Of a DNA stretch of 64,000 nt, positions 3,617 to 50,015 are shown in pieces. Each line of letters begins with the position of its first letter. Within the stretch, counting starts at the first letter, position 1. This DNA comes from a bacterium (lineage in GTDB: Bacteria; Zixibacteria; MSB-5A5; WJJR01), in contig DATMBC010000055.1 in assembly GCA_035559435.1 (NCBI GenBank), positions 45,859 to 109,858 of the forward strand, read 5' to 3'. The translations under genes and the position numbers were made by a program. Under the pieces are notes generated by a model that ran no database searches, had not been told where the DNA came from, and saw only the letters and a program-made list of their open reading frames with translations.

Positions 3617-3656
3617 CAGTCTCTCTTCAATCGCCAATCGCCGATCGTCAATCGCC

Positions 3657-4652: not shown

Positions 4653-4723
4653 AGTTCCTCCGACTCCTTTTGGGATGTGATGTGCGGCAGGTCCGACCGC
4701 GATCTGCGCGGGCCACAACGCGG

Positions 4724-8388: not shown

Positions 8389-8697
8389 GTGAGGTACGCC
8401 ATGAACAGGATGCTCCTACGAGTCATGCTCGTGTCGCTTCTGTGCGCGCTTTTGGTCGCGCCGGCGGCTTGGGCACGCAATCGCAAGACCATCACCGTGC
8501 GGCGGGGCCACCCGGCGGGTGACACCGGCCGGCTCACCGCGGCGGTGTCCGCGCCCACGGCATCGACCGGCATTGTTGTGCTGCGTTTTGGCCTGGGACT
8601 GTCCCAGTCCTATGTCTTCCGTCTGGACCTCTCCGGCCAGCACCTGTCCGGGTCGCATTCCCAGCAACTTCCCTCGACCAAGACTGGAGCGCGCTAA
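8389..8697 (+). CDS. small secreted hypothetical protein (signal peptide), translationally coupled to the downstream activator
   Basis: MNRMLLRVMLVSLLCALLVAPAAWA is a signal peptide. The stop TAA overlaps the downstream ATG as TAATGG at 8695-8699. Confidence 0.4.
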   Translation: MRYAMNRMLLRVMLVSLLCALLVAPAAWARNRKTITVRRGHPAGDTGRLTAAVSAPTASTGIVVLRFGLGLSQSYVFRLDLSGQHLSGSHSQQLPSTKTGAR

Positions 8698-10922
8698 TGG
8701 CGGAGGCCCACATGACAAACCTGGCGAATGACGCCGAAGCGTTTCTGACCGGCCGCCAGTATCAACGCGCCCTGGCCCTCGTCCAATCGGCGCTCGCGCA
8801 GGCGAGCGGCGATCCGGCGACGGACACTGTCCGCCTCCGACTGATCGAGGGCGAGTGCCTGGCATTCCTGGGCGAACAGCGTCGGGCGCTGGAGATCTGC
8901 GGACCGCTTCTGGAAACTCTTGGCGTCTCCAGCGAGCATGCGCTCTACGCGCGCGGCTCGCTGATCATGGGGATCGCGCAGTTCTACCTTGGCCAGACCA
9001 ACGAGGCCTTGGAGAACGCGCGCATCGCCCTGTACGCGTACAAGCGCGCCGGCGACACCGATGGCGCCTGCCGCAGTTTGAACTGGCTGGGTAACATCCA
9101 CTTCGACCGGTCGGAACTTGCCGACGCCGTGCGCGCCTATGAGCAGTGTATCGCACTGGCCGACACCGCCGCGCGGCCGCGTTGGGTCGCGGTCGGACGT
9201 TACAACCTCGGCAAGGCCTTCGCCCTGTGCGGCGAGATTCCGAAGGCGCTGGCCACGCTGACCGACAATCGCGAAGCGCTGGCGCAGGTGTCCGATCCGC
9301 TCAACGTCATGCGCAGCGACCTGCTCACCGCCTTCGTACGGATTCAGGATGGCGACCACACCGGCGCACGCGCCGCGTTGCGCGCTCTGGAATCCGCGGT
9401 CTTCGACTCGCCGCATCTGCGCGAGCAGGGCGCCTGGTGTGAGTACATGGGCGAACTGGAACTGCGGGAAGGCAACCTCAAGGCGGCGGCCGAACAGTTG
9501 GCCCGCGGCATCGCCATCGGATCGGGACCCAGCCGTGACGAGTCGGTCGTTGGCCAATCCCGCCGATTGCTGGCCGAAGTGCGGCTGGCCGAGGGCGATT
9601 TCCCCGAAGCGGTCGCCGAATGCCACCGCGCGCTTGAATCCGTCCGGCGCGTGGGCGAGCGCTTTGAAGAGGGCGTGATCTACCGCCTGCTCGGCGAAGC
9701 CCACCACCGGCTCGATCAGAATCCCGAGGCCCGCGCCGCCTTTAAGCAGTCAGTCGACTTGCTGCGCACCATCGGCGCGCGGCTGGAGTGGGCCAAGTCA
9801 TGCCTGGCCGCCGGTCAGTCGACGGTCTTTTCCCGCCGCGAGCGCTACGCCTTCCTGGCCGAGGCCGAACGGCTCTTCGGCGAAACCGGCGTCGAGCGCT
9901 GGATCGAAGAGGCCCGCGGCGCCGCCCAGGATCTCCTGCAGGGTCGTGTGGGTGAAATTCGCGCCCGCGCCACCGACACCGTCGGCTCCGCCTTGTTTAT
10001 CAGCGCCGACAGCCGCACCCGCGACACGCTCAAACTCGCCGACCGGCTGGCGCGCGTCGATATCGCCGTCCTGATCACCGGTGAGACCGGCGTCGGCAAG
10101 GACCAGTTGTCGCGCTATGTCCACGCCCAAAGCCCGCGTCGCGACGGCCCCTTTGTGCCGATCGACTTGTCCTGCATCCCGGAATCACTCTGGGAAAGCG
10201 AGGTCTTCGGCCATCGCAAGGGCGCCTTCACCGGCGCGACGGCCGACAAGATCGGACTGATGGAGTCGGCCAATGGCGGCACGGTGTTCCTCAACGAGAT
10301 CGGCAACCTGCCGCTGCCGTTCCAGGCCAAGATTCTCGAGCTGCTCGATTCGCAACGGATCCGTCCGGTGGGGCAGACCGAACCGTTGACCCTGGATGTC
10401 CGTTTCATCGCGGCGACCAATGAGAATTTGCGCGCGGCGGTGGCCGCCGGACGATTCCGGCAGGATCTGTACTTTCGCCTGGCCGGCGCGCCGTTGCATC
10501 TGCTGCCTCTGCGTGAACGGCGCGGCGACATCCTCCCGCTCATCCGTCATTTCCTGGTTGAGTATGGAGTGCCGGTCTCGGATCTCTCGTGTCTGGACAT
10601 GCAGTTGTGGGTCGAGCGCGCCTACAACGGACACTGGGAAGGGAACGTGCGCCAACTGCGCTCGTTTATCCATCGCCTGGTGGCGATCGCCGAGCGCCCT
10701 TCCGATCCCGAGTTTGCCGAGTGGGCGATGCGGCTTTTGGAGCAGATTGACATCATCCATGAGCCCAATGTCGGCGCGCGGGTCTCGCGCGAGGCCCTGC
10801 GGGCGGCGCTGGAACGCAACGTATGGAACCAACGCGCCGCGGCGCGCGATCTGGGGATCACCGAAGGCGGCGTCCGCCACCTGATGCGCCGCTGGGATGT
10901 CGCCCGTCCCAAAGCGGCGTAG
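8697..10922 (+). CDS. sigma-54-dependent transcriptional activator with a ~430-aa N-terminal TPR domain and a C-terminal Fis-type HTH
   Basis: The AAA+ sigma-54 interaction domain shows VLITGETGVGKDQLSRYVH, GAFTGA and TVFLNEIGNLPLPFQAKILELLD. The C-terminus carries AAARDLGITEGGVRHLMRRW. The N-terminal half is TPR-like and has no receiver domain. Confidence 0.85.
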   Translation: MAEAHMTNLANDAEAFLTGRQYQRALALVQSALAQASGDPATDTVRLRLIEGECLAFLGEQRRALEICGPLLETLGVSSEHALYARGSLIMGIAQFYLGQTNEALENARIALYAYKRAGDTDGACRSLNWLGNIHFDRSELADAVRAYEQCIALADTAARPRWVAVGRYNLGKAFALCGEIPKALATLTDNREALAQVSDPLNVMRSDLLTAFVRIQDGDHTGARAALRALESAVFDSPHLREQGAWCEYMGELELREGNLKAAAEQLARGIAIGSGPSRDESVVGQSRRLLAEVRLAEGDFPEAVAECHRALESVRRVGERFEEGVIYRLLGEAHHRLDQNPEARAAFKQSVDLLRTIGARLEWAKSCLAAGQSTVFSRRERYAFLAEAERLFGETGVERWIEEARGAAQDLLQGRVGEIRARATDTVGSALFISADSRTRDTLKLADRLARVDIAVLITGETGVGKDQLSRYVHAQSPRRDGPFVPIDLSCIPESLWESEVFGHRKGAFTGATADKIGLMESANGGTVFLNEIGNLPLPFQAKILELLDSQRIRPVGQTEPLTLDVRFIAATNENLRAAVAAGRFRQDLYFRLAGAPLHLLPLRERRGDILPLIRHFLVEYGVPVSDLSCLDMQLWVERAYNGHWEGNVRQLRSFIHRLVAIAERPSDPEFAEWAMRLLEQIDIIHEPNVGARVSREALRAALERNVWNQRAAARDLGITEGGVRHLMRRWDVARPKAA

Positions 10923-23577: not shown

Positions 23578-25018
<1,441 letters not shown>

Positions 25019-25029
<11 letters not shown>

Positions 25030-26668
25030 GCGTACCGCCGCATTGGCCCAATTCGTCCTATCTGTCCTATTGGTCCTATTGGTCTTATTGGCCCTTGCCC
25101 CATCCGCCGCCGCCCAGCAACCCGATATCCGCCCCTATGAATCCGAGGAGGATCTCTGGGAAGCGCTCGACCAAGGCGAGATCAGTTTCGAAGATTTCCT
25201 CGATCTTCTGGAACTGGTCCGCGCCGGCGCCGACACACTGACCAACCCTCCCTCCGACTGGGAAGCGCTTCCTGGCTCCGATGCCGGCTATCTGGCCGCC
25301 GATTCATCCCAGCCGATCACTCAACCCCGGCCCGCTGCCGTCACCGGACGTGTCGACCTGCCGCTTCTGACTTCGTGGCGCAGCGGGATCGATGCCGACT
25401 TGAATGAACCCACCGGCAGCGATGGGTACACCGTGGTCCGTTGGCAGAGCGGCGCAGTCCGCGGCCTGTTCGACTGGGAGCATGACCGCGACGAGGGCGG
25501 TCGCTGGCGACGGCGCACCCTCATCTGGCAGACACGCCGGGTCACGATGCAACTCGGCAACCTCGAACCGCGCTGGGGGAGAGGGTTGGTGGTCGGACGC
25601 CGCTCACGGATAGTGCGTTCCGTGGACCGCTCCGGCTCCTTCTGGCAACCTGCGCTCGGGCGGCACGATGGAATCGCCGCGAGCATCGCGCTGGCCCCTT
25701 CCGTGAGGGGAGATGGATTTCTCAGTTTTCTCGACAGCGACAGTCTGACTGAATGGTCGGGCGGGACGCAACTGCGTTGGTCCCGGAAAACGATGGATGT
25801 CGGCCTCAACTGGGCCAGCAGCGTCAACGGCATCGAGAGACCTGAAATTGAGGGCTTCGAGCTGTTCTCCGCTCATGAGGAGCAGGTCTATGGCGCTCAC
25901 ACACGCCTGGGGCATGGCCCGCGGCAGTTGCTGGCTGAATTCGCCATCAACAACCGCGGTGTCTCCGCCAAGGCGGTCGAATTTCTCTGGCCGCTGCAAC
26001 GCGGCCGCTTCCATGCCCGGCTATGGTCATATGGCGATGGCTTCACCAATCCCCTCGGCGGCGGGCCGGGGCACATCGACACACGCGTGGTCGGGCTTGA
26101 ATCGCGCGGAAGGGCGTTCTCCTCACGCACCGCCGGCGAGCGCGGATTCGACTTCTCGACACGGCTGGATGTCGCGCCCGGTATGCGTCTGCGCTGGGAC
26201 TGGATGACTCACCGCGAGGCGCCCGGCGAAAAGCTGGAACACGACGGCGTGTTCCGTGCCGAGGTCCAACGCGACGGTCTGCGTCTGACGCCCTTCGTCC
26301 GGGCCCGCATCGACGAGGACGAAAGCGAGTCCTACTCGCTGGGCAACTACCTCTGGTGGGGGAGGGAGGGACGGCGCCTCAATCTGCGCGCCGAGTATGG
26401 GCGCCATTACAGTCGTGAAGCGCCGTTTGTCCGCGCCGGCGTCGGGCTGGAGTGGCAGCTCAGACGGTTTGTGCGTCTGGCGCCGGCGATCCGCTGGACC
26501 GATCCCGATCTGGATCATCCCGGCGATGGATACTGGTACTTCTACTTCACCGAAGTCGTCACTCCGGCGGCCGGCCTGAAGTTCGAGGCGGCGCTGGTCT
26601 GGAAGCAACTCGAGAATCCGGACGCCAACGATCCGGTTGAATTGCGGGTGCGGCTCGCATTAAGGTAG
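25019..26668 (+). CDS. hypothetical secreted beta-rich protein (possible outer-membrane barrel)
   Basis: Signal peptide [34 protein letters not shown], an acidic helical segment, then Trp/Arg/Gly-rich beta-strand pattern. The start overlaps the regulator's stop. Confidence 0.45.
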
Positions 26669-26672
26669 TAAC

Positions 26673-29600
26673 ATGCTTCGCAGGATGCTTCCCTTACTCC
26701 TTGCGTTCGGTGCGATCCTCCGGATGGCCATGCCGGCCCGGGCCGGTTTGATCCTGAACGAGGCCCTCGCCAACGAACCCGGGTCGGCCACCACACTCGA
26801 GTGGATCGAACTCCTCCATTGGCCTGACACCGGAGCCGACGTTTCGCTGCAGGGATACCGATTGCTCGATGGCGGGTCGATCATCACTTTCGACACCTCG
26901 CTTGTCATCCCCGCCGGCGGCTTTGCCGTTCTCGCGCGCAAGACGATCGGCGCGGCCAGTTTCGAAGCGCGCTGGGGTGACTCGTCCGGTGTCTGGGGCG
27001 ATAGGCCCGATGAATCATTTCCGTTGATCGCGGTCGGCCAGATGTCTTTGCGCAACGCCGGCGACACGGTGCGTCTGGTGTCGCCCACCGGCGATACCTC
27101 GCTCATCCTCTGGGCTTCCGACGCGGGCGATGGACGTTCGATCGAACGGATTCGTCCCGGCGACAACGATGCCCCGTCCAATTTCGCGCCCAGTGTCGCT
27201 CCGTCCGGATCAACGCCGGGATCGCCCAATTCGGTGCTGCCGCCGCGCGGCGATCTGGCCATCGATACCCTCGTCACGGGCCCGCTGCTTCCCACGCCGG
27301 ATGACACGGTGCGCGTCGCCGTGCGCATCCGCAATGTCGGCTTCGGCGATGTCGCCGGCGGCACGCTGACGCTGCGACACGATGGGAGCGCGGCCAGAGT
27401 CATCGTTGCGCGACCCTACCCGGCCATTCCCGAAAGTGGTGAACTCACGCTCGTGCTCGATTGGCCGAACCCGCCCCCGGGGATCAGCCCCGTCACGGCC
27501 TGGCTCAACGAAGACGCCGACAGCTCCAACAATGCACGCACGGTGCCGGTCCTCGTGCGTTTCAATCGACCGCATCTGGTGATCTCCGAGTATCTCGCCA
27601 ATCCCGAAACCCCCGGTCCCGATGAATGGGTGGAGATCGCCAACGTCAGCGACTGGGAGATTCGTCTCGAAGGGCTGCGTGTCGGCGATTCGCTCAATAG
27701 CGAATCGATTCCCGCCACCGCCGGAGCAATCCCTGCCGGCGGATTCCATGTGCTGGCCGAAAACGCGGCCGCCTTCCGCGCTCACTATCCTGACTTCACC
27801 GGAGCGCTCACCGGCATCCCCGGCTGGCGCGCGCTCAACAATACCGGCGATGGCATTCGCTTAATCGGCCCCTCCGGTGAGATCATCGACTCGCTGTCCT
27901 TCCGCCTGACCTATCCCGACAACCGATCGGTGGAACGTGTCGAATTGACGCCATCGTACTCTGTGCCCGGTGACTGGACCGTTTCCGAGGCGCCGCTGGG
28001 CGCCACCCCCGGCACGCCCAATTCGGTGGCGCGCGGCGAAACCGGGTCGCTGATGTTCGATTCCGTCTGGATCGAGCCGGCGCTGCGTCGCTGGGGCGAC
28101 ACACTCACTCTGGCCGCGGCAGTGCGCAATCACCGCTTCGGGCCGGCTTCGGGTTTTATACTGACTGTCCTGCGCGAACTCGACTTCGCCAACCCCGGCG
28201 CACAGCGCGAACCGATCGCTGAACTCGCGATCACGGCGATGGACGAGGGACAGTCGGCGATCCTCGCGTTACCCTGGGTCGATGCGCCTATTGGGTTGCA
28301 GCGTCTGCAGTTTTCGCTGCGCGACGCTCAGGGAACCGCAGCCGACAGCGCCGCGATCGTGATTACCATTCTCTGTCCGCCTTCGCTACTCATCATCTCC
28401 GAGTACATGGCCGCCCCCGTAGCCGGGTTCTCCGGCGAGTGGATCGAATTGTACAATACGGCCACTGTTCCCGTCGACCTGCGCGGTGTCCAGATCGGCG
28501 ACAGCACTGCCTTGTCCAGTCTTCCGCCAACGGCGTCCATCCTGGAGCCGGGGGCGTTTGTGGTGCTGGCTCAGGATGAAGATCAATTCCGCTCCGCGTA
28601 CCAGGAATTCGCCGGCGAAGTACTGACCGTGCCCGCCTGGCGCACACTGGGCGATGGCGGCGATCGCATTCGACTGGCGGGCGCGGGGACTGAGATCATC
28701 GACTCACTGACGTATGCCGCCTTGCCGCAGGATTGGCGATCGCTCGAACGCCGGCAGTTGCTACCGCGGCCCGCTGACCGTCGCGATTGGGGACACAGCA
28801 TCGACCCCTGGGGCGCCACACCGGGACGCCCCAATTCAATCGCCCGGAACGACAACGATCTGGCGTTGACCGGTTTTGGTCTGGATGCGTCGGGCGTCTA
28901 CTGGCCGTCTGCGATCACCGGCTCACTGGAAGTCGTCAACGAGGGCTTCGCCACCGTCGAACAGGCCAAGATCAGCATCGTGGATGGGATCAGCGACACA
29001 GAAGTCTGGTCAACCGTCTTACCGTCCCTGGCGCCGGAGTCGGCTGTGGTCGTTCCCTTCGAGTTCGGGCCGCTGCCGCCCGGGTTTTACATTCTGCGCG
29101 CGGCCGTTCCGGATGATGAGTTTGGTGACAACAACAGCGCCACCCGGTCGATGCAAATCGGGCACACTTTTCCCGGGCTGGTCATCGCGGAATACCTGGC
29201 CGATCCCGCCAGTCCCGGCCCCGGCGAGTGGGTCGAGCTGTACAACGCCTCCGATATGATGCTCACCCTGCGTGGCTGCGGCTTGGGTGACTCGGTGGGC
29301 TATGCGCCGCTCCCGATCTCTGCGCCGTTTGTGCTGGCGCCCGGCGACTACGTCGTTCTCTGCCAAGACCGTGTTGCCTTTCTCGCCTGGTATGCCGGTT
29401 TCACCGGCGACCTCATCGAAGTCCGCAACTGGCGCGAGTTGAACAACGACGGCGACAGGATCCGTTTGCGCGGCGTTCTGGGCGAAATCATCGACTCGCT
29501 GACGTATGTCGAAGGAGCCGGCCACAACCGTTCGTGGGAACGCATCTCCCTGTCGCCGACATACTCCACGCGTGCCGATTGGACCGCATCGGTCGCCGCC

Positions 29601-29939
29601 GCGGGCGCGACGCCGGGCGCGCCCAATTCCGTCGATGCCGCCGCCGCCGGACCGCTGGACGTTGCGGTTTCACCCAACCCCGTCTTCCGCGCCGCGGGAC
29701 AGATCGCCAACATCGTCTACCGTATCGACATCGGCGAACGGCTCACGCTGAAGATCTTCGATCGCGACGGCCACACGGTGCGCACCATCGTCGATGATGC
29801 GCCCAGCGCTTCCGGCTCGATCGCCTGGAATGGCACCGACGACGATGGCGCAGACCTCCGACCCGGTCCATACATCCTGTTGGCCCGCTCCGAACCGGCC
29901 GGATCAACGAAGAAACTCGTGGTGGTGCTGGCCCCATGA
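26673..29939 (+). CDS. large secreted protein with four lamin-tail-domain (LTD) repeats alternating with Ig/CARDB-like modules and a C-terminal T9SS-type sorting domain
   Basis: Four copies of the motif L(I/V)I(S/N)E(Y/A)(L/M)A.P....(D/G)EW(I/V)E(L/I).N......L.G..(V/I)GDS are present. The C-terminus VSPNPV...LKIFDRDGHTVRTIV...SIAWNGTDDDGADLRPGPYILLAR...KKLVVV fits the T9SS CTD pattern. An N-terminal signal peptide is present. Confidence 0.75.
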   Translation: MLRRMLPLLLAFGAILRMAMPARAGLILNEALANEPGSATTLEWIELLHWPDTGADVSLQGYRLLDGGSIITFDTSLVIPAGGFAVLARKTIGAASFEARWGDSSGVWGDRPDESFPLIAVGQMSLRNAGDTVRLVSPTGDTSLILWASDAGDGRSIERIRPGDNDAPSNFAPSVAPSGSTPGSPNSVLPPRGDLAIDTLVTGPLLPTPDDTVRVAVRIRNVGFGDVAGGTLTLRHDGSAARVIVARPYPAIPESGELTLVLDWPNPPPGISPVTAWLNEDADSSNNARTVPVLVRFNRPHLVISEYLANPETPGPDEWVEIANVSDWEIRLEGLRVGDSLNSESIPATAGAIPAGGFHVLAENAAAFRAHYPDFTGALTGIPGWRALNNTGDGIRLIGPSGEIIDSLSFRLTYPDNRSVERVELTPSYSVPGDWTVSEAPLGATPGTPNSVARGETGSLMFDSVWIEPALRRWGDTLTLAAAVRNHRFGPASGFILTVLRELDFANPGAQREPIAELAITAMDEGQSAILALPWVDAPIGLQRLQFSLRDAQGTAADSAAIVITILCPPSLLIISEYMAAPVAGFSGEWIELYNTATVPVDLRGVQIGDSTALSSLPPTASILEPGAFVVLAQDEDQFRSAYQEFAGEVLTVPAWRTLGDGGDRIRLAGAGTEIIDSLTYAALPQDWRSLERRQLLPRPADRRDWGHSIDPWGATPGRPNSIARNDNDLALTGFGLDASGVYWPSAITGSLEVVNEGFATVEQAKISIVDGISDTEVWSTVLPSLAPESAVVVPFEFGPLPPGFYILRAAVPDDEFGDNNSATRSMQIGHTFPGLVIAEYLADPASPGPGEWVELYNASDMMLTLRGCGLGDSVGYAPLPISAPFVLAPGDYVVLCQDRVAFLAWYAGFTGDLIEVRNWRELNNDGDRIRLRGVLGEIIDSLTYVEGAGHNRSWERISLSPTYSTRADWTASVAAAGATPGAPNSVDAAAAGPLDVAVSPNPVFRAAGQIANIVYRIDIGERLTLKIFDRDGHTVRTIVDDAPSASGSIAWNGTDDDGADLRPGPYILLARSEPAGSTKKLVVVLAP

Positions 29940-30763
29940 CCCGGCGACGACTCCTGATTCCGCTGGTCGTCCTTCTCGGGCTGGCCCTCGCAAAACACGC
30001 ATTGGCGCAGGACGATGAATTCGGTTCAGCGGTGCTGCAGAGCGTCGGGGAGGTCTACGCGCTCTTGCCGGGGTCTCCCGCGGTCGTGGGCGTGCATCCG
30101 GCGTTGTCGGGTCTTGCCGACACACGCACCGCGCTGGAACTCTCTTATCGCCAACCATTCGGTTTGAGTGAACTGGAAGATCTCACGCTGGCCGCCGCGC
30201 GCCAGATCGGCCGCTGGCGCGCCGGTGGCACGGTCACGCGATCCGGCGAGGCCGGTTTGTATCAGGAATATCGCCTCACCGGCGCCATCGCCCTGACTCC
30301 CGTGCGACGGCTCGCCATCGGCGCATCGCTCATGTATGTGAGCGCCGAATTCGGCGACAATCTCTCACGGTATGCCGGCGGCTTCGGCACTCTCTCCGTC
30401 GCGGCACGTCCATGGCCGTCGCTTCATCTCGCCGCCGCGCTTCACAGTATCACGCTCGACCGAGTGTACGAGAATGACCCCTCCGATCCGGTCGTCGAAT
30501 TGTCGGCGGCGTGGACAGCCGGAGAAGAAGTGGCGCTTGGCGCCCGCTGGCGCCGGACCCGCGAGGGTGATCATCGCTTCGGTTTGGGGCAGGTTCTTTC
30601 ACTGACCGACAACGTGGAATTCCTGGCCGGATTGCGATTCGATCCGGTGCGCTACGCTCTCGGCGGACGGTTCCGCTACCGTGGCGGCGCGCTGGTCTAC
30701 ACCTATGAGGGGCATCCCGAACTGGGCGGCACGCACGCCATCGGCCTGGCGTGGAGCCGGTGA
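29936..30763 (+). CDS. hypothetical secreted / outer-membrane protein translationally coupled to the LTD protein
   Basis: Signal peptide MTRRRLLIPLVVLLGLALAKHALAQ and beta-rich sequence. ATGA overlaps the upstream stop. It lacks the PorP/SprF N-terminal QDPQFSQY motif. Confidence 0.4.
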   Translation: MTRRRLLIPLVVLLGLALAKHALAQDDEFGSAVLQSVGEVYALLPGSPAVVGVHPALSGLADTRTALELSYRQPFGLSELEDLTLAAARQIGRWRAGGTVTRSGEAGLYQEYRLTGAIALTPVRRLAIGASLMYVSAEFGDNLSRYAGGFGTLSVAARPWPSLHLAAALHSITLDRVYENDPSDPVVELSAAWTAGEEVALGARWRRTREGDHRFGLGQVLSLTDNVEFLAGLRFDPVRYALGGRFRYRGGALVYTYEGHPELGGTHAIGLAWSR

Positions 30764-32196: not shown

Positions 32197-32574
32197 ATGC
32201 AATGCTACTTTTCGTCGATTAAACCCGGCCAGCCCGACGAGCCCGGGCCCGGATTTGTCTCCTTCGTCATCCCCGAACTGAAGATCACCTTCCGCGCCCG
32301 CTATCAGGGCACCGCAGGCGAGTGCGAATACGCCAGTCTGCTGGCGCTGCTGGAATTCGTCGAGATCAATCCCCGTGTCTTCGAGAACAAGACGCTTGAG
32401 ATTTTCGGCGATTCCTTCTCGGTGGTCAGCCAGGTCAACGACCGCCGCGACTGCGCCCAGGGTCTGGAAAACTTCCGCAACGTCGCGCTGCTGCTCAAAC
32501 GGCGCATTCCCTACACGATCGGCTGGGTGCCGCCGGCGGACAATCCCGCCCGTCCCAGCGACGTTCCTCGCTGA
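32197..32574 (+). CDS. RNase H-like (RNase HI / RVT_3-like fold) small protein with first catalytic Asp replaced
   Basis: CYFSS...PGPGFVSFVI aligns to the YTDGS...GPGG.G.V. block but with D replaced by S. TAGECEYASLLALLEFV aligns to TNN.AEY.AL..AL, keeping the Glu. LEIFGDSFSVVSQVN keeps the GDS Asp. The C-terminus WVPPADNPA aligns to the ADxLA Asp. Confidence 0.5.
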   Translation: MQCYFSSIKPGQPDEPGPGFVSFVIPELKITFRARYQGTAGECEYASLLALLEFVEINPRVFENKTLEIFGDSFSVVSQVNDRRDCAQGLENFRNVALLLKRRIPYTIGWVPPADNPARPSDVPR

Positions 32575-33749: not shown

Positions 33750-34355
33750 ATGGTAACCAGAGCGGACACGGGCGGTGATCAGCACTATCCGGCGCTCAGT
33801 GAGCCCGAGCTGATCCGTCTGGCCCAGAAAGGGGACCGTCGCGCCTACGACCAACTGGTACGGATTTACCAGCGGCAAGTATACCGTTGGGCCTTCCATG
33901 TTGTTCGCACACATGACCTTGCGGACGAAGTGGCGCAGGATGTCTTTGTGCGCACCTACCAGGCCCTCGACCGGGTCGATCCCGATCGGCCTCTCGGCGC
34001 TTGGCTTTGCCGGAGCACAGTCAATGTGGCGCTCAATATTGTGCGCAAACAGCAATTCCGGACCCAATGGGCGCAGGAGAACCGACCCGATCCGACCGAT
34101 TTCGAGCGGGAATCGGCACAGCCCGATGCGGGATTCAGGCGCAAACGTGTGTTGCAGCGACTGGAGGCGGCCATCAACGACCTGCCGCCGTTGTACCGGA
34201 CGATTATGCTCCTGCGCATCCGCGATGAAATGAGCTATGATGAAATCTCCAAAGCACTTGGCGTATCAATGGGGACCGTTATGTCCCGGATTGCCCGCGC
34301 CCGCCACCGGCTTCGTGAGGCGCTGGGTGACTTTATGGATGATCTGCGGGAATAG
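33750..34355 (+). CDS. RNA polymerase sigma-70 factor, ECF subfamily
   Basis: Region 2 (YDQLVRIYQRQVYRWAFHVVRTHDLADEVAQDVFVRTY) and region 4 (YDEISKALGVSMGTVMSRIARARHRLRE). Confidence 0.9.
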   Translation: MVTRADTGGDQHYPALSEPELIRLAQKGDRRAYDQLVRIYQRQVYRWAFHVVRTHDLADEVAQDVFVRTYQALDRVDPDRPLGAWLCRSTVNVALNIVRKQQFRTQWAQENRPDPTDFERESAQPDAGFRRKRVLQRLEAAINDLPPLYRTIMLLRIRDEMSYDEISKALGVSMGTVMSRIARARHRLREALGDFMDDLRE

Positions 34356-34426
34356 AATGCCCGAACGATGGTAATAGGGTAAAGGGCGGGCGTCCGGCTA
34401 CGGCCGGACAGGGGAAAGGTAAGACG

Positions 34427-35602
34427 ATGAATTGCCGTGGGGTCGAAAACTGGGTCTGGAAGGAAGGGGCGGGGAATCTCCCGGCCGCGGTGGTGGAGCA
34501 TGCCGCCGCCTGTCCCGGTTGCCGCGCCTTGATCGAGGAGGTCCGTCTGTTGGACCGCTCCGTCGCCGCCATGCCCGTCCCCGAGCCGGGCGAGGACTAT
34601 TGGAATTACATGCGTGAGCAGGTGGCGCGGCGTCTCGACGCTCCGGTGACCACCGTGATCTCGCTGGAACCGGCCACTCCCCGCTGGCAGCGGATCCTGA
34701 CGCGCGTCTGGGCTCCGGCCCTGGCCGTTGTCCTGGTCGCGGTTGTGGCCAACCAGCGGGCGCTGGTGACCACCGAGTCGGTACACATCCTGTCCGAGGC
34801 GGAGCTCCAGTCGCGGGTGAAAGCTCTCGCGCAGGCGCCGAATTCATCGGAATTTGCCAATCTCGAGGAGACCGCCCCGGCCACGGAGCCGTCAGCGACC
34901 GCACTCGCCCCGGTGCGTCGGCAGACCGAGAGCGCTCTGCGTACCGCCCCGGCGCCTTACGCCGCCGGCGCGACCACTGCGGCTGAGCCGGAACTGGCGA
35001 CAGGGCCCGTCGACGTCCCGGCGTCGTCGTCCGCCGAGCCCACGATGGCGATCGCCGACCGGCGTGGGACCACACCATCTGAGACGCTCTGGCCCGATCG
35101 ACAAGTCATGATCATGGGGCAGGTCGATTCGAATGCCCCCGATCAGAAGTCTTCCTCCGACGATGGCCGTCTGGCCGCGCAGGACCCCTTCGGCGCCTAC
35201 GAACGCCAGATGGCGCTGGCCGATCAGGGGTTCGAGACGGCGGGCGCGGCATCCACACCGACCCGTCTTCTGGAAGGACCGGCGGCCGCGCCGTCACGCG
35301 GTTCCGAACGTCTCACCACGGCCGAGCAGATGCGCCGCTTCGATGAAATCGCCGAGTTGCGCGAACTGATCGCCCGTCTGGAGACGGTGCCGCCATCCAG
35401 CCGTGCCATGTCGCAGTGGAGTCAGTGGTCGACCGCGTGGTACCGGCTGGGGATGCTCTCCGACCAGCAGGTCGTCGTCGACTCCGCCATTGTCGCGGTC
35501 GACTACTTCACGCGGACCGTCCCCGGCGATTCCGCCACCGCGCGCGAGTGGCAGAATCGGCGGACGCATTTGGAGAACCGACGGACCGCGCTGCAACGTT
35601 GA
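34427..35602 (+). CDS. anti-sigma factor with N-terminal zf-HC2 motif and a single TM segment
   Basis: H-x3-C-x2-C (EHAAACPGCRAL) and a TM segment (VWAPALAVVLVAVVA). It lies immediately downstream of the ECF sigma gene. Confidence 0.65.
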   Translation: MNCRGVENWVWKEGAGNLPAAVVEHAAACPGCRALIEEVRLLDRSVAAMPVPEPGEDYWNYMREQVARRLDAPVTTVISLEPATPRWQRILTRVWAPALAVVLVAVVANQRALVTTESVHILSEAELQSRVKALAQAPNSSEFANLEETAPATEPSATALAPVRRQTESALRTAPAPYAAGATTAAEPELATGPVDVPASSSAEPTMAIADRRGTTPSETLWPDRQVMIMGQVDSNAPDQKSSSDDGRLAAQDPFGAYERQMALADQGFETAGAASTPTRLLEGPAAAPSRGSERLTTAEQMRRFDEIAELRELIARLETVPPSSRAMSQWSQWSTAWYRLGMLSDQQVVVDSAIVAVDYFTRTVPGDSATAREWQNRRTHLENRRTALQR

Positions 35603-40463: not shown

Positions 40464-40502
40464 GCGAGGGAACGAGCGACCGTGTCGTTGCGTTAAACAG
40501 CC

Positions 40503-42200
40503 ATGAGATTCTCCCGCACGCGTTTGTTGTTGCCGCTTTTGATCGTCGCCGGATGCGCCGGCATGTTGAACGCGGCGGGCATCTCCGACCCGGTGCGTCA
40601 GGCCGCCGCCGCCGGCGACCGTGTCTGGGTCTTCATCTCCGATAAAGGGCCCGACGCCGATGCGCGCGCCCGCGCCAGGATCGTGCCGCCGCGCGCCGCG
40701 GCACGGATCGCCGCCCGGGGATCGTCATTCGACCCGCGCATCGACCTGCCGGTGCACAACGGCTATCGCCACGGCCTCGAACAGGCCGGTATGGTGATCA
40801 AGAACGAATCCCGCTGGCTCAATGCCGTGACCGGTTGGATTCACCCCGAGGACCTGCCCGCCATCGCGCAACTGCCGTTTGTCGACTCACTCCGGCCGGT
40901 CGTGACCTTTCATCGGCCCGAGATCGCCGGGGACGATCTGCCTTCGCCATTGCCGCGCCGCGCCGTGGCATCCGAGGACGTGTTCGACTACGGCGGCGCT
41001 GCGGCGCAGATCCAACTGCTGGGCGTCCAGTACCTCCATCGCGCCGGATTGAGCGGACGCGGTGTGCGCATCGGCATGATGGACACCGGCTTCTCGCTCG
41101 GCATCCGCGCCTTCGACTGCCTTGACATCCGGGGCACGCGCGATTTCATCAATGGCGACGACGATGTCGGCGACAACGAGGCCTCGCAGATGCGCCATGG
41201 CACGCAGACCCTGTCGCTCTGCGGCGGGTTCGACGAGGGCCGGATGGTCGGAGTCGCTCCCGGCGCCCAGTTCGTCGTCGCCAAGACCGAGCTGGTCGAT
41301 CTGGAGATCGAAGCCGAGGAGGACAACTGGGTCGCCGGCCTCGAATGGCTCGATTCGATGGGTTGCGAGATCGTCTCCAGTTCGCTGGGATATGTGGACT
41401 GGTACGGCCAGGATGACTTCGACGGCAACACCGCGCCATCGACCATCGCGGCCGATCTGGCGGCAGCGCGGGGTGTTCTGGTCGTCAACGCCGCCGGCAA
41501 CTATGGCTGCGGCGATGGCGACATTCGCATCATCGTGCCCGCCGACGGCGATTCGGTGCTGACCGTCGGCGCCTCGACATTCGAAGGGGTGCGCGCCAGT
41601 TTCTCCTCCTGCGGGCCGACCAGCGACGGACGCATCAAGCCCGATGTGATCGCCCCCGGGCAGGGCGTCTGGGTCGCGCTGCCCAACACCGGAATGTATC
41701 AGCCCGGCAACGGGACATCGTTCGCCACGCCGCTGGTGGCCGGTGTCTGCGCGCTGCTTTTGGAGCAGAATCCCGCGCTGTCGCCGTTCGATTTGATCCT
41801 GCTTTTGCGCTCCACCGCCGACCAGGCGACCAAGCCCTGGCCCACCTACGGCTGGGGGCTGGTGCAGGCGGTCGCGGCGGCCGGACTGGACACCAACGCC
41901 ATCGAGCCGGTGCGGCCATTTGACTGCAACCGTGTGGCCGGGAGCGTCGAATTGCGCCCCAATCCCGCCTCGGAATCGGTGACCATCAAAGTCACCGGCG
42001 GACCAAACAGCGACGGCGACTTCCGCATTTTCACGGTCTCTGGCGGTTTGGTCTATGAAGGGGAAATCCGCGCCGGCGAAGGGACGTGGGACGGCCAGAC
42101 CATCTCCGGCGCAGACGCCGCCCCTGCGGTTTATCTGATCCATATTCACACTGAGATCATCGAAGAAGTCCTGAAGCTGGCCTGGCTGCCGCGGGATTGA
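40503..42200 (+). CDS. S8-family subtilisin-like serine peptidase with C-terminal T9SS-type sorting domain
   Basis: Asp (MMDTGF), His (HGTQT) and Ser (GTSFATPLVAG) catalytic motifs. The C-terminus VELRPNPASESVTIKV...FRIFTVSGGLVYEGEIRAGEGTWDGQTISGADAAPAVYLIHIHT...EEVLKLAWLP is CTD-like. Confidence 0.85.
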   Translation: MRFSRTRLLLPLLIVAGCAGMLNAAGISDPVRQAAAAGDRVWVFISDKGPDADARARARIVPPRAAARIAARGSSFDPRIDLPVHNGYRHGLEQAGMVIKNESRWLNAVTGWIHPEDLPAIAQLPFVDSLRPVVTFHRPEIAGDDLPSPLPRRAVASEDVFDYGGAAAQIQLLGVQYLHRAGLSGRGVRIGMMDTGFSLGIRAFDCLDIRGTRDFINGDDDVGDNEASQMRHGTQTLSLCGGFDEGRMVGVAPGAQFVVAKTELVDLEIEAEEDNWVAGLEWLDSMGCEIVSSSLGYVDWYGQDDFDGNTAPSTIAADLAAARGVLVVNAAGNYGCGDGDIRIIVPADGDSVLTVGASTFEGVRASFSSCGPTSDGRIKPDVIAPGQGVWVALPNTGMYQPGNGTSFATPLVAGVCALLLEQNPALSPFDLILLLRSTADQATKPWPTYGWGLVQAVAAAGLDTNAIEPVRPFDCNRVAGSVELRPNPASESVTIKVTGGPNSDGDFRIFTVSGGLVYEGEIRAGEGTWDGQTISGADAAPAVYLIHIHTEIIEEVLKLAWLPRD

Positions 42201-47528: not shown

Positions 47529-48205
47529 GCGCGGGCGTCCTGTTCATCGTCGCCACTCCCATCGGCAATCTGGGCGATATCACCGCGCGCGCGGTGGCCA
47601 CGCTGGGCGCGGCCGATCTGGTGCTCTGCGAGGACACACGGCGCACCCGCACGCTGCTGTCACATCTGGGCCTGTCGCCGCGGCTTCTGTCGGTGCGCGA
47701 GCACAACGAACGCGCCCGCGCGGCCGGCCTGCTCGAACGGCTCGCCGCCGGCGAAACGCTGGTCTATGTCAGCGACGCCGGCACACCCGGCATCTCCGAC
47801 CCCGGGGCGCGGCTGGTGGACACCGTGGTCGCCGCCGGATTCCCGGTGGTGCCGATCCCCGGCCCGTCGTCGGTGACCGCGCTCCTGTCGGTCTGCGGTT
47901 TCCCCGCCGACCAGTTTGTCTTCGAAGGATTCCTGCCGGTGAAAAGCGGCCAGCGGGCGCAGCGCCTCGCCGCGCTTGCCGCCGAGACACGGACCCTCGT
48001 GCTGTTTGAATCGCCGCACCGGATCGTGCGCACGCTGGCCGAGATGCGCGACGCCTGGGGCGAGCGCTCCGCCTGCGTCGGACGCGAACTCACCAAGAAG
48101 TTCGAGGAGATCCGTCGCGGCACGCTGGGCGAGCTGGCTGACTGGGCGCAATCTAAGTCGATGCGCGGCGAATTCGTGTTGGCCGTGCGCGGCGCGGGGC
48201 GCTGA
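47525..48205 (+). CDS. rsmI: 16S rRNA (cytidine1402-2'-O)-methyltransferase
   Basis: MSAGVLFIVATPIGNLGDITARAVATLGAADLVLCEDTRRTRTLL... ATGA overlaps the nadE stop. Confidence 0.85.
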   Translation: MSAGVLFIVATPIGNLGDITARAVATLGAADLVLCEDTRRTRTLLSHLGLSPRLLSVREHNERARAAGLLERLAAGETLVYVSDAGTPGISDPGARLVDTVVAAGFPVVPIPGPSSVTALLSVCGFPADQFVFEGFLPVKSGQRAQRLAALAAETRTLVLFESPHRIVRTLAEMRDAWGERSACVGRELTKKFEEIRRGTLGELADWAQSKSMRGEFVLAVRGAGR

Positions 48206-48248
48206 AGTCGGTTGCCGCCCTCCCGCCCGTGTGTTACCTTCGCGCGCG

Positions 48249-49193
48249 ATGTCGAAACCGAACGCCCGACCCCGGAACGGCCTGTGGCATCGTTCCACCG
48301 CGCTGGATCGCCTGACGATCGGTTACATCCTCGCGTTTGCCGTCGCGCTCTTCTTTCTTGGACGCGACAACGCCGCCTGGGGACGGCTCCTGCTGGTCCA
48401 TCTGGCATTGGCCGCGGCGATCGTCGTCATCATTCATCTCTGGCATGACCGCTCAACCGGCGTGGCGGGTTTCATCCGCCAGCTGTACCCGGCCATGCTC
48501 TACCCGTTCTTCTACGGTGAACTGGCGGTCGCCAATTTCTGGATCTTCCCCGAATTTCGCGATGCGCGTCTGGTGGCCTTCGAGCGCGCCATCTTCGGCA
48601 TCGATCCCAACGTCTGGATCACATCGTTGCAATCCCCCTGGCTCAACGAAGTGATGATGCTGGGGTACTTCAGTTACTATCTGCTACTTCCGATCGTGGC
48701 CCTGCCGCTGTTTTTCCGGGGCCGGATCGATGACCTGCGCGGATTGCTCCTCGGCGCCACCACGGCTTTCGTGATCTCCTACATCGGATTTGTCGTCTAT
48801 CCGGTCGAGGGGCCGCGCTACTTTCTGGCCGAGCGGTTTGACGCGCCGCTGGCGGGATGGCTGTTTGTGCCCCTGGTGCGGATGATCATTGATGGCGGCG
48901 CGATCCACGGCGGCTGCATGCCGTCGTCGCATGTGGCGGTCGCGCTGGTTGCGCTGGCCTGGGCCTTGCGCACCATGCCGCGCCTGGGACGCGTGCTCGT
49001 CCCGTTTGTCATCCTGCTTGCCATCGGCACCGCGTGGGGGCGATTCCATTACGTCACCGACGCGGTTGTCGGCGTCGCGGTGGGACTGGCCGCGTTGGCG
49101 CTCACCGGTTTCTGGCGGAGAACGTCCGCCGTCGAACACGAATTGCTCGTGTCATCGGCGCGCGCCATGGCGCCGTCGGGAACGCTGCGGTAG
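48249..49193 (+). CDS. PAP2-superfamily membrane phosphatase / phosphotransferase (IPC-synthase-like or PIP-phosphatase-like)
   Basis: PAP2 motifs C2 PSSH and C3 GRFHYVTD in a polytopic membrane protein. The start was taken at MSKPNARPR (48249). Confidence 0.7.
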   Translation: MSKPNARPRNGLWHRSTALDRLTIGYILAFAVALFFLGRDNAAWGRLLLVHLALAAAIVVIIHLWHDRSTGVAGFIRQLYPAMLYPFFYGELAVANFWIFPEFRDARLVAFERAIFGIDPNVWITSLQSPWLNEVMMLGYFSYYLLLPIVALPLFFRGRIDDLRGLLLGATTAFVISYIGFVVYPVEGPRYFLAERFDAPLAGWLFVPLVRMIIDGGAIHGGCMPSSHVAVALVALAWALRTMPRLGRVLVPFVILLAIGTAWGRFHYVTDAVVGVAVGLAALALTGFWRRTSAVEHELLVSSARAMAPSGTLR

Positions 49194-49208
49194 CCGCCGT
49201 GAGACACC

Positions 49209-50015
49209 ATGTGTCCTGAACTCTTCCACATCGGCGACTTCGCCGTGCGCGCCTATGGCTTGGCGCTGGCGCTCTCGTTTCTCATCGGCCTCTGGCTGAT
49301 CGACCGCGAGGCGCGTCTGCTTGGCCTCAACCCCGACGCCATCGTCAACCTCGGCTTCGTGCTGATCATCTTCGGCGTGATCGGAGGACGGCTGGGCTTT
49401 GTGCTCTATCACTGGTCCGACTTTGCCGACAATCCGCTGGACATCATCAATCCGTTCCAGGCCGGCCAGTTCGGCATCTCCGGGTTGAATCTGCAAGGGG
49501 GGCTGATCGGCGGCTTTGTCGCCGGATTGTTCTATCTGCGCTGGAAGAAACTCCCTTGGGTGGCGGCGCTCGACGCGGTGGCGCCCGCGGTCGGGTTCGG
49601 GATTTTCGTGTCACGGATCGGTTGCTTCCTCAACGGCTGCTGTTTCGGCACTCCCACCGATGGTCCCTTCGGTGTGCATTTCCCGGATCATTCCGCGCCG
49701 CATGCGGTCTTCGGCGACCGCGCCGTGCATCCGACCCAACTGTACTCCTCCGCCTATGGCCTGCTGCTGTTCTTGTTTCTGCTGTGGATCAATCGACGGC
49801 GCTATCGGGTGGGACGCGCCACCGGATTGTTCTTCGTCGCCGAATCGGCGGCGCGCCTGGCGATCGAACCGCTGCGCTACTACGAGGACGCCATGTGGAT
49901 CACGCTGGCCGGCTTGGACATCACCTACAACGTCATCGCCGCCGTGATCATGTTCGTGATCGGTCTGTTCTTTCTGGTTCGCCGGTGGCCGGAGTCGGCG
50001 GGTAAAACGGCTTGA
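49209..50015 (+). CDS. lgt: prolipoprotein diacylglyceryl transferase
   Basis: MCPELFHIGDFAVRAYGLALALSFLIGLWL... and the Lgt signature region GGRLGFVLYHW. Confidence 0.9.
   Translation: MCPELFHIGDFAVRAYGLALALSFLIGLWLIDREARLLGLNPDAIVNLGFVLIIFGVIGGRLGFVLYHWSDFADNPLDIINPFQAGQFGISGLNLQGGLIGGFVAGLFYLRWKKLPWVAALDAVAPAVGFGIFVSRIGCFLNGCCFGTPTDGPFGVHFPDHSAPHAVFGDRAVHPTQLYSSAYGLLLFLFLLWINRRRYRVGRATGLFFVAESAARLAIEPLRYYEDAMWITLAGLDITYNVIAAVIMFVIGLFFLVRRWPESAGKTA

Follow-up and report, generated by a model that had tools for sequence, protein, structure and literature searches.

A tandem lamin-tail-domain protein encoded between two outer-membrane barrel genes in Zixibacteria-lineage bacteria: a candidate cargo with its own carrier

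The locus raises the question of what a bacterial protein built from four lamin-tail domains (LTDs) does, and whether its gene works alone or with its neighbours. The window, the whole 64,000-nt stretch of DNA analysed, encodes this protein as HWO57223.1, which NCBI names "lamin tail domain-containing protein" and starts at M20. The open reading frame and its fourfold periodicity are both real, and, taken alone, the protein belongs to a known class and has already been annotated. The initial annotation called it giant; at 1088 aa it is large. Its gene and parts are as follows.

26673..29939, + strand: gene of the LTD-repeat protein, a predicted surface protein, 1088 aa and stop (NCBI HWO57223.1)
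26673..26744, + strand: Sec-type signal peptide, aa 1-24, MLRRMLPLLLAFGAILRMAMPARA followed by G, read from the sequence and orthologue N-termini
26745..27233, + strand: LTD unit 1, aa 25-187, subtype LILNEALANEPGS..., end GSTPGSPNS (Pfam LTD 30.5 bits alone; unit HMM)
27234..27569, + strand: inter-LTD module 1, aa 188-299, CARDB-like Ig-type spacer (family level)
27570..28025, + strand: LTD unit 2, aa 300-451, end GATPGTPNS (Pfam LTD 44.6 bits; unit HMM)
28026..28385, + strand: inter-LTD module 2, aa 452-571, CARDB-like (family level)
28386..28838, + strand: LTD unit 3, aa 572-722, end GATPGRPNS (Pfam LTD 55.6 bits; unit HMM)
28839..29174, + strand: inter-LTD module 3, aa 723-834, CARDB-like (scores highest among the three, yet at 16.6 bits, E 0.0094, is under the cutoff of 22.7)
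29175..29630, + strand: LTD unit 4, aa 835-986, end GATPGAPNS (Pfam LTD 49.9 bits; unit HMM)
29631..29936, + strand: C-terminal domain (CTD), aa 987-1088, FlgD_ig-type Ig-like β-sandwich (Pfam FlgD_ig 36 bits, above 27)

BLASTP of segments against the protein recovers four homologous units (E 1e-7 to 1e-43, 24-50% identity), bearing out the ~270-aa periodicity first noticed. The Pfam LTD model (PF00932) matches four stretches with 166.1 bits against a gathering threshold of 34.3, and unit 1, scanned alone, lies slightly below that threshold. The cores L(I/V)I(S/N/A)E(Y/A)(L/M)A, first placed at aa ~24, ~300, ~570 and ~830, begin at aa 26, 302, 573 and 836, and the G(S/A)TPGxPNS motifs at aa 179, 443, 714 and 978. 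Secretion, also proposed at the outset, agrees with the signal peptide: by inspection it ends in an AXA-type site, ARA before G, that is kept in orthologues, and LTD1 follows directly.

The layout differs in two respects from the four LTD-plus-Ig-like pairs originally described. All four LTDs are present, but there are only three Ig-like modules, and LTD4 runs into the C-terminal domain with no spacer between. Additionally, the W...GATPGxPNS segment does not belong to the Ig-like module, as had been thought; it closes each LTD-containing unit of ~155 aa and precedes the module, and in unit 1 its W is replaced by F. The suggested CARDB/Ig comparison gives a mixed result: 11 of 17 orthologous inter-LTD modules match CARDB (PF07705) at E<=1 (best E 9.4e-6), but the window's copies stay below the cutoff (16.6 against 22.7 bits), and on these profile scores the modules are CARDB-type at family level only. 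Profiles of the modules give only marginal matches in the PDB, and a PDB sequence search with the whole protein as query returns no match.

The architecture had been presented as distinctive, yet it is already in NCBI, and the same SP-(LTD-Ig)n-LTD-CTD layout occurs at a locus of an unrelated lower-GC lineage (L004). Moreover, Mans et al. 2004, as cited in PMC6085458, had earlier described LTDs in tandem in proteins that bacteria secrete. Like such proteins and like LTD nucleases such as ExeM, the LTD-repeat protein joins a signal peptide to LTD β-sandwich modules, which in those extracytoplasmic proteins sometimes stand in tandem. Unlike the nucleases, it has no catalytic domain, and it combines a strict alternation of LTD and CARDB-type modules with a CTD tail. 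The binding of DNA, polysaccharide or membrane that had been ascribed to LTDs is unproven: their function is established in no bacterial protein, and the LTD of ExeM is dispensable for extracellular DNA degradation in vivo, its role being described as not yet elucidated (PMC6085458).

The tail offers a clue to the protein's route. [quoted passage not shown] Its motifs are SPNP..., FDRDG..., PGPY... and ...KKLVVVLAP. It passes Pfam FlgD_ig (PF13860) and matches the tails of PorU and PorZ at E 0.003; its profile finds FlgD (E 1.7e-5), the PorU CTD 6za2 (E 0.016) and PorZ 5m11 (E 0.096) in the PDB. WD40 matches of the same profile, at 7-8 bits per repeat, were rejected as a short repeated-motif artefact. 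Type A CTDs are seven-strand Ig-like β-sandwiches in which β4 opens with a conserved, functionally important Gly and the last strand contains a Lys (PMC11285876). The CTD alignment contains an invariant G47 and K95, which we tentatively equate with these two residues.

The curated sorting-domain models are nevertheless missed. TIGR04183 (type A CTD) aligns over positions 1-71 of 72 but reaches 14.8 bits against a curated cutoff of 23 (E 0.021), CHU_C (PF13585, type B CTD) gives 14.8 bits against a gathering threshold of 27 (E 0.031), and Por_Secre_tail is not among the matches listed for the isolated tail against Pfam. Because these curated cutoffs are missed, the T9SS-type domain of the initial annotation is retained as a resemblance to a sorting domain, with membership undemonstrated. 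The tail also resembles FlgD, scoring over the Pfam cutoff and matching FlgD Ig domains of solved structure. Unlike FlgD, however, it has no FlgD N-terminal domain, stands in a non-flagellar context, and occupies the position of a sorting tag at the very end of a secreted multidomain protein. No other CTD-bearing ORF appears in the window by HMM or regex, and none of the core T9SS components (SprA/Sov, PorU, PorV, PorK-N, PorL/M) is among the ten large ORFs scanned in these 64 kb.

The genes on either side of the LTD gene, together with a regulator, are these.

23578..25029, + strand: σ54-dependent transcriptional activator, AAA+ with Fis-type HTH (Pfam; synteny)
25019..26668, + strand: upstream partner gene, 549-aa signal-peptide protein, the large barrel (NCBI HWO57222.1 "hypothetical"; AF2, synteny)
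29936..30763, + strand: downstream partner gene, 275-aa signal-peptide protein, the small barrel (NCBI HWO57224.1 "hypothetical"; AF2, Foldseek, profile search)

This invariant pair of flanking outer-membrane barrel genes, which the initial annotation missed, is the most informative feature of the locus, and this context is its new part.

The small barrel is modelled by AF2 (pLDDT 81) as an N-terminal hatch-like segment followed by 14 strands. Its gene shares 4 nt with the end of the LTD gene (ATGA), and an overlap of 4 nt is found at two related loci (L001 and L003) as well. In Foldseek its top PDB match is the T9SS translocon chain 6h3i_F, with 8gl6_F also found (TMq ~0.66); we take chain F of these entries to be PorV. 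The chain so taken, FadL and OmpG all score at TMq 0.58-0.68, PorV no better than OmpG or FadL. The hatch/NPA segment matches TbuX (E 1.5e-4), although the NPA motif itself is degenerate, (H/S/C)PA, in the window's clade. Model, fold search and hatch match thus describe a 14-strand FadL-type barrel with an N-terminal hatch.

Sequence profiles connect this barrel to T9SS shuttles through its relatives. The window's protein itself matches no PorV, PorQ or PorP model in Pfam or NCBIfam, and gives no match to NF033709 (PorV/PorQ) at E<=0.1. The clade profile, however, finds 422 relatives, and it matches one relative, P0103, at E 5.4e-21 among 1.84e9 proteins. Of 84 sampled relatives, 34 match NF033709 at E<=0.01 (best 1.5e-29), 23 match PorQ, 10 PorP/SprF and 8 PorV2; P0103 scores 68.9 bits against the NF033709 curated cutoff of 90, and relatives scanned singly are all under it. 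Moreover, hhalign pairs the window's clade (A1) with a PorV/PorQ-like cluster (A8) at 99.9% probability (E 2.3e-31, 268 columns). Judged by these profile comparisons, the small barrel is homologous to PorV/PorQ-like proteins and is a divergent member of the FadL/PorV/PorQ superfamily.

In the AF2 model of the large barrel (pLDDT 79.5), a short N-terminal domain of helices precedes a β-barrel of ~24 strands. Its gene overlaps the end of the σ54 activator gene by 11 nt and ends 4 nt ahead of the LTD start. The protein has no sequence relative in Pfam, NCBIfam or the PDB, and by this measure is a ~550-aa family without known relatives. Foldseek finds only generic barrels (TM 0.37-0.49), the nearest being TonB-dependent transporter and usher barrels; identification as a TonB-dependent transporter or fimbrial usher was rejected on this generic likeness and on the lack of Plug, TonB_dep_Rec or Usher matches (Pfam/NCBIfam) in 36 members. 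SprA/Sov was likewise rejected: the published SprA structure is a 36-strand barrel of more than 2000 aa, and this protein has 549 aa and ~24 strands, no family match and no SprA among its 50 best Foldseek matches. A HhH/ComEA-like reading of the N-terminal helices (...DWEALPGS...) was dropped because no HhH model matched; the only matches were weak ones to EF-hand and SHOCT, in 6 of the 36 members.

The three genes stay together across the lineage. In all 16 loci with enough flank, the LTD gene has the gene of a ~550-aa barrel of ~24 strands on one side and that of a ~275-aa barrel of 14 strands on the other. Large barrel, LTDxN-CTD and small barrel follow one another in this order in 14 of 14 loci with enough flank. 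The small barrel is directly downstream of the cargo wherever that junction is present (18/18). The gene order recurs in a deep branch whose barrels are 22-25% identical: cargo and small barrel adjoin in 4/4 loci and the large barrel is present in 2/2. No locus examined has lost either barrel. A metagenome scan used a query alignment of six closer members.

Conserved adjacency alone is weak evidence, because the whole region is syntenic across the lineage, including the housekeeping genes RNase R, dGTPase and holA. One locus, L005, keeps the triad intact though all outer synteny differs, and it is the sole locus showing the triad move as a unit. The σ54 activator directly upstream of the large barrel is adjacent in almost all loci. 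Regulation of the cassette by σ54 was considered and set aside, leaving adjacency only: matches to the TGGCAC-N5-TTGC consensus show no enrichment across the window (51 observed against 68 expected), and the DNA upstream of the cassette, here and at eight other loci, has no good GG-N10-GC site.

In every related Zixibacteria genome examined the LTD gene lies between two barrel genes, one of them for a distant PorV/PorQ relative, which suggests a cargo encoded together with its carrier. By analogy with Bacteroidota type B cargo and their PorP/SprF shuttles, there is about an even chance that its product forms an LTD stalk on the cell surface, where a cognate carrier barrel holds it. The protein would then be the cargo in a three-gene outer-membrane module conserved among Zixibacteria-lineage bacteria. 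It would leave the cytoplasm by the Sec route through its N-terminal signal peptide, and its C-terminal Ig-like domain, a putative relative of T9SS sorting domains, would target it across or onto the outer membrane. The small barrel, encoded downstream and presumably translationally coupled, would carry or hold it at the cell surface, much as PorV acts on type A CTD cargo and PorP/SprF-like barrels on neighbouring type B CTD cargo in Bacteroidota. The large barrel would be the third obligate partner, probably an outer-membrane conduit or platform. Once displayed, the protein may form a beads-on-a-string stalk of putative ligand-binding LTD modules alternating with CARDB-type spacers, whose length and valency would follow from how many LTD units a species has (2 to 5).

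The closest parallels are the Bacteroidota pairs SprB-SprF, PG1035-PorP and the Fjoh type B pairs. There, as here, a multi-domain protein that Sec exports, a surface protein there and a predicted one here, carries a β-sandwich signal at its C-terminus and is encoded next to a ~270-300-aa barrel of the PorV/PorQ/PorP superfamily. In the known pairs this barrel binds its own cargo, transports it and anchors it (PMC12618676, PMC9143113, PMC10994853); PorP binds PG1035 and SprF binds SprB (PMC9143113). The present case differs in its tail, which is FlgD_ig/type A-like, and in its barrel, which is nearer the PorV/PorQ models than PorP/SprF, its relatives scanned singly still being sub-cutoff. It differs also in the orphan ~24-strand barrel that is always present and in the Zixibacteria lineage, and its pairing of cargo and carrier is a putative one.

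PorV (LptO), the FadL-fold shuttle of type A cargo, is the other parallel: it shares the 14-strand barrel and N-terminal hatch-like segment, gives the best PDB fold match, and serves CTDs that the tail of the LTD cargo resembles. PorV serves all type A cargo of a cell and is not known to be encoded beside a single cargo. The chains taken as PorV are resolved at 345-367 residues, compared with 275 aa for the small barrel, which has no direct PorV model match and is matched equally by OmpG and FadL. A cargo with its own carrier would carry the principle of a CTD cargo with a cognate PorV/PorQ/PorP-type barrel, so far demonstrated for Bacteroidota alone, over to an uncultured phylum of the FCB group, and with a type A-like rather than a type B tail. 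It would also tie that pair to the ~550-aa barrel family and give the "hypothetical" families of HWO57222.1 and HWO57224.1 a concrete, testable role. A large barrel that proved to be a conduit would bear on the evolution of T9SS-type outer-membrane transport. The natural series of 2 to 5 units, for its part, could be used to explore which ligands bacterial LTDs recognise.

The reading can be taken further. The triad might be a self-contained single-cargo export and display device fixed in the core genome, with the large barrel as translocon or platform, the PorV/PorQ-like barrel as lateral carrier or anchor, and the CTD as tag; it would then be a minimal relative of the T9SS portion made up of SprA and PorV, possibly its evolutionary forerunner or a side branch. 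We regard this as decidedly speculative. If true, the device would operate in a phylum without a described T9SS.

Among the alternatives, an ordinary T9SS type A cargo fares best, though it is unlikely. The canonical SprA, PorV and PorU would be encoded elsewhere, the CTD would be cleaved and the protein released or linked to LPS, and the flanking barrels would be unrelated genes sharing a syntenic block by chance. The full-length alignment of the tail with TIGR04183 and its likeness to the PorU and PorZ CTDs suit this account, as do the equally syntenic housekeeping genes and L004, which carries the same cargo type with no such barrels alongside (a distant large-barrel homologue sought there by hhalign has a probability of 0.4%). 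Chance neighbourhood fits poorly, however, with L005, where the triad persists while all else changes, with barrels lost nowhere, with overlapping stop and start codons of cargo and small barrel, and with a downstream barrel from the very superfamily that carries T9SS cargo. Moreover, a literature search found no paper joining Zixibacteria with type IX secretion.

A Sus-like capture-and-uptake system is a distinctly improbable alternative. Here the LTD stalk would bind an extracellular polymer such as DNA or a glycan, the plug-less large barrel would import it, and the FadL-like small barrel would be a second channel. The nearest folds of the large barrel (TonB-dependent transporter and usher barrels), the FadL-type hatch/NPA-like segment of the small barrel and the LTDs of extracellular nucleases (PMC6085458) point this way. 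Yet the large barrel matches no Plug, TonB box or TonB_dep_Rec and stays below TM 0.5, the NPA motif is degenerate in the small-barrel clade, the cassette has no nuclease, hydrolase or inner-membrane transporter, and ExeM degrades DNA in vivo without its LTD.

Very unlikely is a purely structural role, in which a vertically inherited core component forms an S-layer-like coat or outer-membrane tether and the beads mainly give length and self-association, with no external ligand. The gene occurs at a single locus, has nowhere been lost and keeps its place in the core genome over deep divergence; it evolves fast, as surface proteins do, and its LTD units number 2 to 5 among species. No S-layer or SLH-type domains were found, however, and such a scaffold is compatible with the export and anchoring steps of the cargo-with-carrier reading rather than exclusive of them.

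An assembly or annotation artefact, with the repeat number wrong through collapse or expansion, has nothing in its favour beyond the periodicity of the protein and is practically negligible, given a best DNA self-match of 66% over 236 nt, a longest exact repeat of 14 nt, no tandem repeat in Tandem Repeats Finder, an identical 1088-aa protein in an independent Logan assembly, and four-unit orthologues at 45-55% identity. The assembly-collapse risk once attached to the DNA repeats falls away, because these are too diverged, the second assembly is identical, and the units are positionally orthologous between species. Unit 1 is a distinct subtype, and orthologous copies of it share 52-67% identity.

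The gene for the lamin tail domain (LTD) protein lies where the initial annotation placed it, at 26673..29939 on the + strand, encodes 1088 aa, and is flanked by genes for two predicted outer-membrane barrels, with which it forms a triad:

25019..26668, + strand: large-barrel gene, 549 aa with a signal peptide, ending 4 nt before the LTD start
29936..30763, + strand: small-barrel gene, 275 aa with a signal peptide, overlapping the LTD stop by 4 nt

The large-barrel start in turn precedes the stop of a σ54 activator gene by 11 nt.

The fourfold periodicity claimed for the LTD protein is real and far beyond chance, as four Pfam LTD matches, segment BLASTP and motif positions agree. Pfam assigns LTD to four stretches totaling 166 bits over the whole protein (gathering score 34.3), and the domains score 30.5, 44.6, 55.6 and 49.9 bits when scanned piecewise against the same threshold. 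BLASTP of segments against the whole protein delimits homologous units at aa 25-290, 300-560, 573-825 and 835-995, which are 24-50% identical to one another (E 1e-7 to 1e-43). LTD motif cores begin at aa 26, 302, 573 and 836, and G(S/A)TPGxPNS recurs at aa 179, 443, 714 and 978. Four copies of an LTD plus an Ig-like module had been proposed; the four LTDs stand, but there are only three spacer modules, of ~112-120 aa each, because LTD4 abuts the C-terminal domain (CTD). The W...GATPGxPNS segment, formerly assigned to the Ig-like module, instead closes each ~155-aa LTD unit upstream of the spacer. By inspection, the N-terminus (MLRRMLPLLLAFGAILRMAMPARA followed by GLILNE) is a Sec signal peptide, and orthologues share the same hydrophobic core and AXA, with LTD1 directly after. 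CARDB falls below threshold in the whole-protein Pfam scan, as does each of the three inter-LTD modules taken singly, and it matches 11 of 17 aligned orthologue modules (best E 9.4e-6). At the family level, these modules are predicted to be CARDB-type Ig-like domains.

The tail keeps its proposed T9SS character as a resemblance, but misses the curated cutoffs. Spanning aa 987-1088, it covers 71 of the 72 positions (1-71) in TIGR04183, the model for the T9SS type A sorting domain, and also aligns with the C-terminal parts of the models for PorU and PorZ (E ~0.003). The tail scores 14.8 bits against both TIGR04183 (cutoff 23) and the type B model CHU_C (cutoff 27), and its last 82 aa match Pfam FlgD_ig at 36 bits (cutoff 27). 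Among solved structures, a profile of 12 orthologue tails finds FlgD Ig domains (E 1.7e-5) and the CTDs of PorU (6za2, residues 1057-1154 of 1156; E 0.016) and of PorZ (5m11; E 0.096). G47 and K95 are invariant in the CTD alignment, presumably at the β4-start Gly and last-strand Lys of T9SS CTDs. Both of these residues are functionally important in T9SS CTDs (PMC11285876). Judged by sequence, the tail appears to resemble a T9SS CTD in every soft respect, as a curated member of neither type A nor type B.

The small barrel of the window matches no Pfam or NCBIfam model. AlphaFold2 with a family alignment (pLDDT 81) predicts a 14-strand outer-membrane-type β-barrel with a short N-terminal segment. 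Its best Foldseek match in the PDB is chain F of the T9SS translocon entries 6h3i and 8gl6 (TMq ~0.66), which we take to be PorV from chain lengths; the scores for OmpG and FadL are nearly the same, and by fold alone the protein can be called no more than a 14-strand FadL/OmpG-class barrel. When 1.84 billion representatives are searched with a window-clade profile, 422 proteins match at E<=1e-3, nearly all of ~270 aa and matched end to end. Among 84 sampled relatives, the NCBIfam model NF033709 ‘PorV/PorQ family’ matches 34 (best E 1.5e-29), followed by PorQ (23), PorP/SprF (10), ‘PorV2’ (8) and PorV (3), while Pfam finds PorP_SprF in 9 and Toluene_X/FadL in 4. Relatives scanned individually fall below the NCBI cutoff, one of them (P0103) with 68.9 bits against 90. 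In profile-profile comparison, the window clade aligns with a PorV/PorQ-like cluster over 268 columns at 99.9% probability (E 2.3e-31). A broad small-barrel profile also matches FadL-family structures through an N-terminal hatch segment with an ‘NPA’ motif (TbuX, E 1.5e-4), which reads (H/S/C)PA in the window clade. These profiles identify the small barrel as a divergent member of the FadL/PorV/PorQ/PorP superfamily, within no curated named family. At 7055-7904 of L005, the most divergent locus, gene calling splits the small-barrel gene in two (98 and 180 aa) and the HMM spans positions 63-267 only; a frameshift, pseudogenization or an assembly error accounts for the split.

Family HMMs find the order large barrel, LTDxN-CTD, small barrel in 14 of 14 loci with enough flank (the window and the related loci L001-L003, L005-L007 and L009-L015), four others being cut by contig ends. 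A metagenome scan seeded from small-barrel relatives ~22-25% identical to the window protein adds a deep branch, in which an LTDx2-CTD gene lies immediately upstream of the small barrel in 4/4 loci with upstream sequence, and a large-barrel homologue precedes the LTD gene in 2/2 (HMM E 1e-21 and 4e-23). The triad is a fixed part of the core genome in an uncultured phylum. Less probably, the LTD protein is an ordinary T9SS cargo with the flanking barrels as bystanders. Adjacency alone is weak evidence in this lineage because the entire block is syntenic, from RNase R and the σ54 activator through the triad to HD-dGTPase, a 125-aa ORF and holA; its housekeeping genes are ~45-54% identical where identity between the barrels has dropped to 22-25%. 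A functional unit is supported by the start/stop overlaps, by the superfamily to which the small barrel belongs, by L005, which keeps an intact triad among outer genes that all differ, and by the finding that none of the loci examined has lost one member. Insertions break the otherwise compact block in three loci: ~2.4 kb separating the large-barrel gene from the LTD gene (L013, 1430-3877), and, between the σ54 activator and the large barrel, four small genes (methyltransferase-like, HTH and others; L003, 4428-6078) or ~1.4 kb (L016, 2560-3958). The 125-aa ORF (window 32197-32574, +), located between the HD-dGTPase-like gene and holA, has no Pfam match and is kept in nearly all related loci, deep branch included (L022 and L023, 33-36% identity).

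The large barrel is modeled (AlphaFold2, family alignment, pLDDT 79.5) as a short helical N-domain followed by ~24 outer-membrane-type strands, and at 549 aa with this strand number it is not SprA-like. It has no detectable relative in Pfam, NCBIfam or the PDB, even with all 36 members or a profile as query. A Sus-like capture-and-uptake system might be read into its generic Foldseek likeness to TonB-dependent transporter and usher barrels in the PDB (TM 0.37-0.49); the protein lacks a plug, a TonB box and usher domains.

In Bacteroidota, cargo with a type A CTD exits the SprA translocon bound to PorV, and type B cargo exits on other carriers, which tether it at the cell surface (PMC10994853); PorP binds PG1035 and SprF binds SprB (PMC9143113). 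The window cassette follows the same plan: its multidomain protein, exported by Sec, ends in a CTD-like tail, and the gene is translationally coupled to that of a carrier-superfamily barrel. This shared logic is the ground for the route proposed here. The LTD protein would be exported by Sec, pass the outer membrane in a CTD-dependent manner, and then be retained on its cognate 14-strand small barrel, with the large barrel as a possible third partner, conduit or platform. The displayed protein may form a stalk of LTD binding modules with CARDB domains as spacers; in ExeM, the LTD is dispensable for extracellular DNA degradation in vivo (PMC6085458). The analysis shows the architecture, folds, homology and linkage, while CTD-barrel contact, surface display and the large-barrel role are inferred; the overall scheme of export, cognate-barrel retention and display is about as likely as not. 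A structural coat is an unlikely alternative. That the triad works on its own to export and display a single cargo, as a relative of the SprA-PorV part of the T9SS, seems improbable. The literature searched describes no such triad, in which a PorV/PorQ-superfamily barrel accompanies an orphan ~24-strand barrel; the triad would represent a variation on a known cargo-shuttle principle.

The initial annotation also warned of assembly collapse, but repetition at the DNA level is not meaningful: self-alignment reaches at most 66% identity, over 236 nt, no exact repeat exceeds 14 nt, the sole motif echoes are 41 nt at 63-73% identity spaced 792-813 nt apart, and Tandem Repeats Finder reports no repeat. 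An assembly artefact behind the repeat number, the weakest alternative, is countered by an identical 1088-aa protein in an independent Logan assembly. LTD units number 2, 3, 4 or 5 per protein across related loci. Unit 1 of the window protein shares 52-67% identity with its counterparts in other species versus only 35% with its own sister units, and unit 2 follows the same pattern. The array is an old one and did not arise by recent duplication.

A word-indexed search finds 27 orthologues (34-89% identity), all Zixibacteria where a taxon is named. The architecture had been called distinctive, but L004, an unrelated lower-GC metagenome contig, encodes a 25% identical protein built on the same SP-(LTD-Ig)n-LTD-CTD plan, the window protein itself is already public as HWO57223.1 (‘MAG TPA: lamin tail domain-containing protein [bacterium]’), and tandem LTD repeats in secreted bacterial proteins have long been noted (Mans et al. 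2004, as cited in PMC6085458). In essence the proposed reading, LTD repeats followed by a T9SS-like tail, is right, but such a protein is ordinary. Two NCBI starts look too short: HWO57223.1 begins at M20, which drops the signal peptide, and HWO57222.1 (large barrel) has 526 aa versus 549 aa in the window and 540-560 aa in orthologues. L006, L007, L012, L013 and L018 carry the Zixibacteria-type cassette under the labels ‘uncultured Ignavibacteria bacterium’ or ‘Acidobacteriota bacterium’, and L006 proteins are 89-98% identical to those of window genes; these labels are probably taxonomic mislabels of metagenome-assembled genomes (MAGs).

Elsewhere, the window encodes a second σ54-dependent activator and a sugar cluster:

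8523-10919, + strand: second σ54-dependent activator (ORF of 799 aa from stop to stop), in which a long TPR/MalT-like N-terminal region replaces the receiver domain
56892-63417, + strand: sugar/exopolysaccharide cluster
59532-61145, + strand: Wza-like Poly_export/SLBB protein, after an 879-aa fusion
62095-63417, + strand: GFO/IDH/MocA oxidoreductase of the same cluster

The 879-aa fusion joins nucleotidyl transferase, hexapeptide acyltransferase and phosphoglucomutase/phosphomannomutase domains. No σ54 promoter consensus lies upstream of the cassette in nine loci, and σ54 consensus counts at up to 2 mismatches are below chance across the window. The sole perfect -24/-12 match in the 64-kb window is TGGCACAAATCTTGC at 445-459 (+). 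Two large ORFs, 3105-4724 (+, 540 aa) and 34343-35599 (+, 419 aa), have no Pfam match at E<=1e-4. A subtilase (Peptidase_S8; 40497-42197, +) and an S41 tail-specific protease with a PDZ domain (54075-55769, +) are also encoded, both without the LTD-type C-terminal tail. The strongest AT skew, -0.296, falls at 48001-50000, compared with values mostly within ±0.15 elsewhere.
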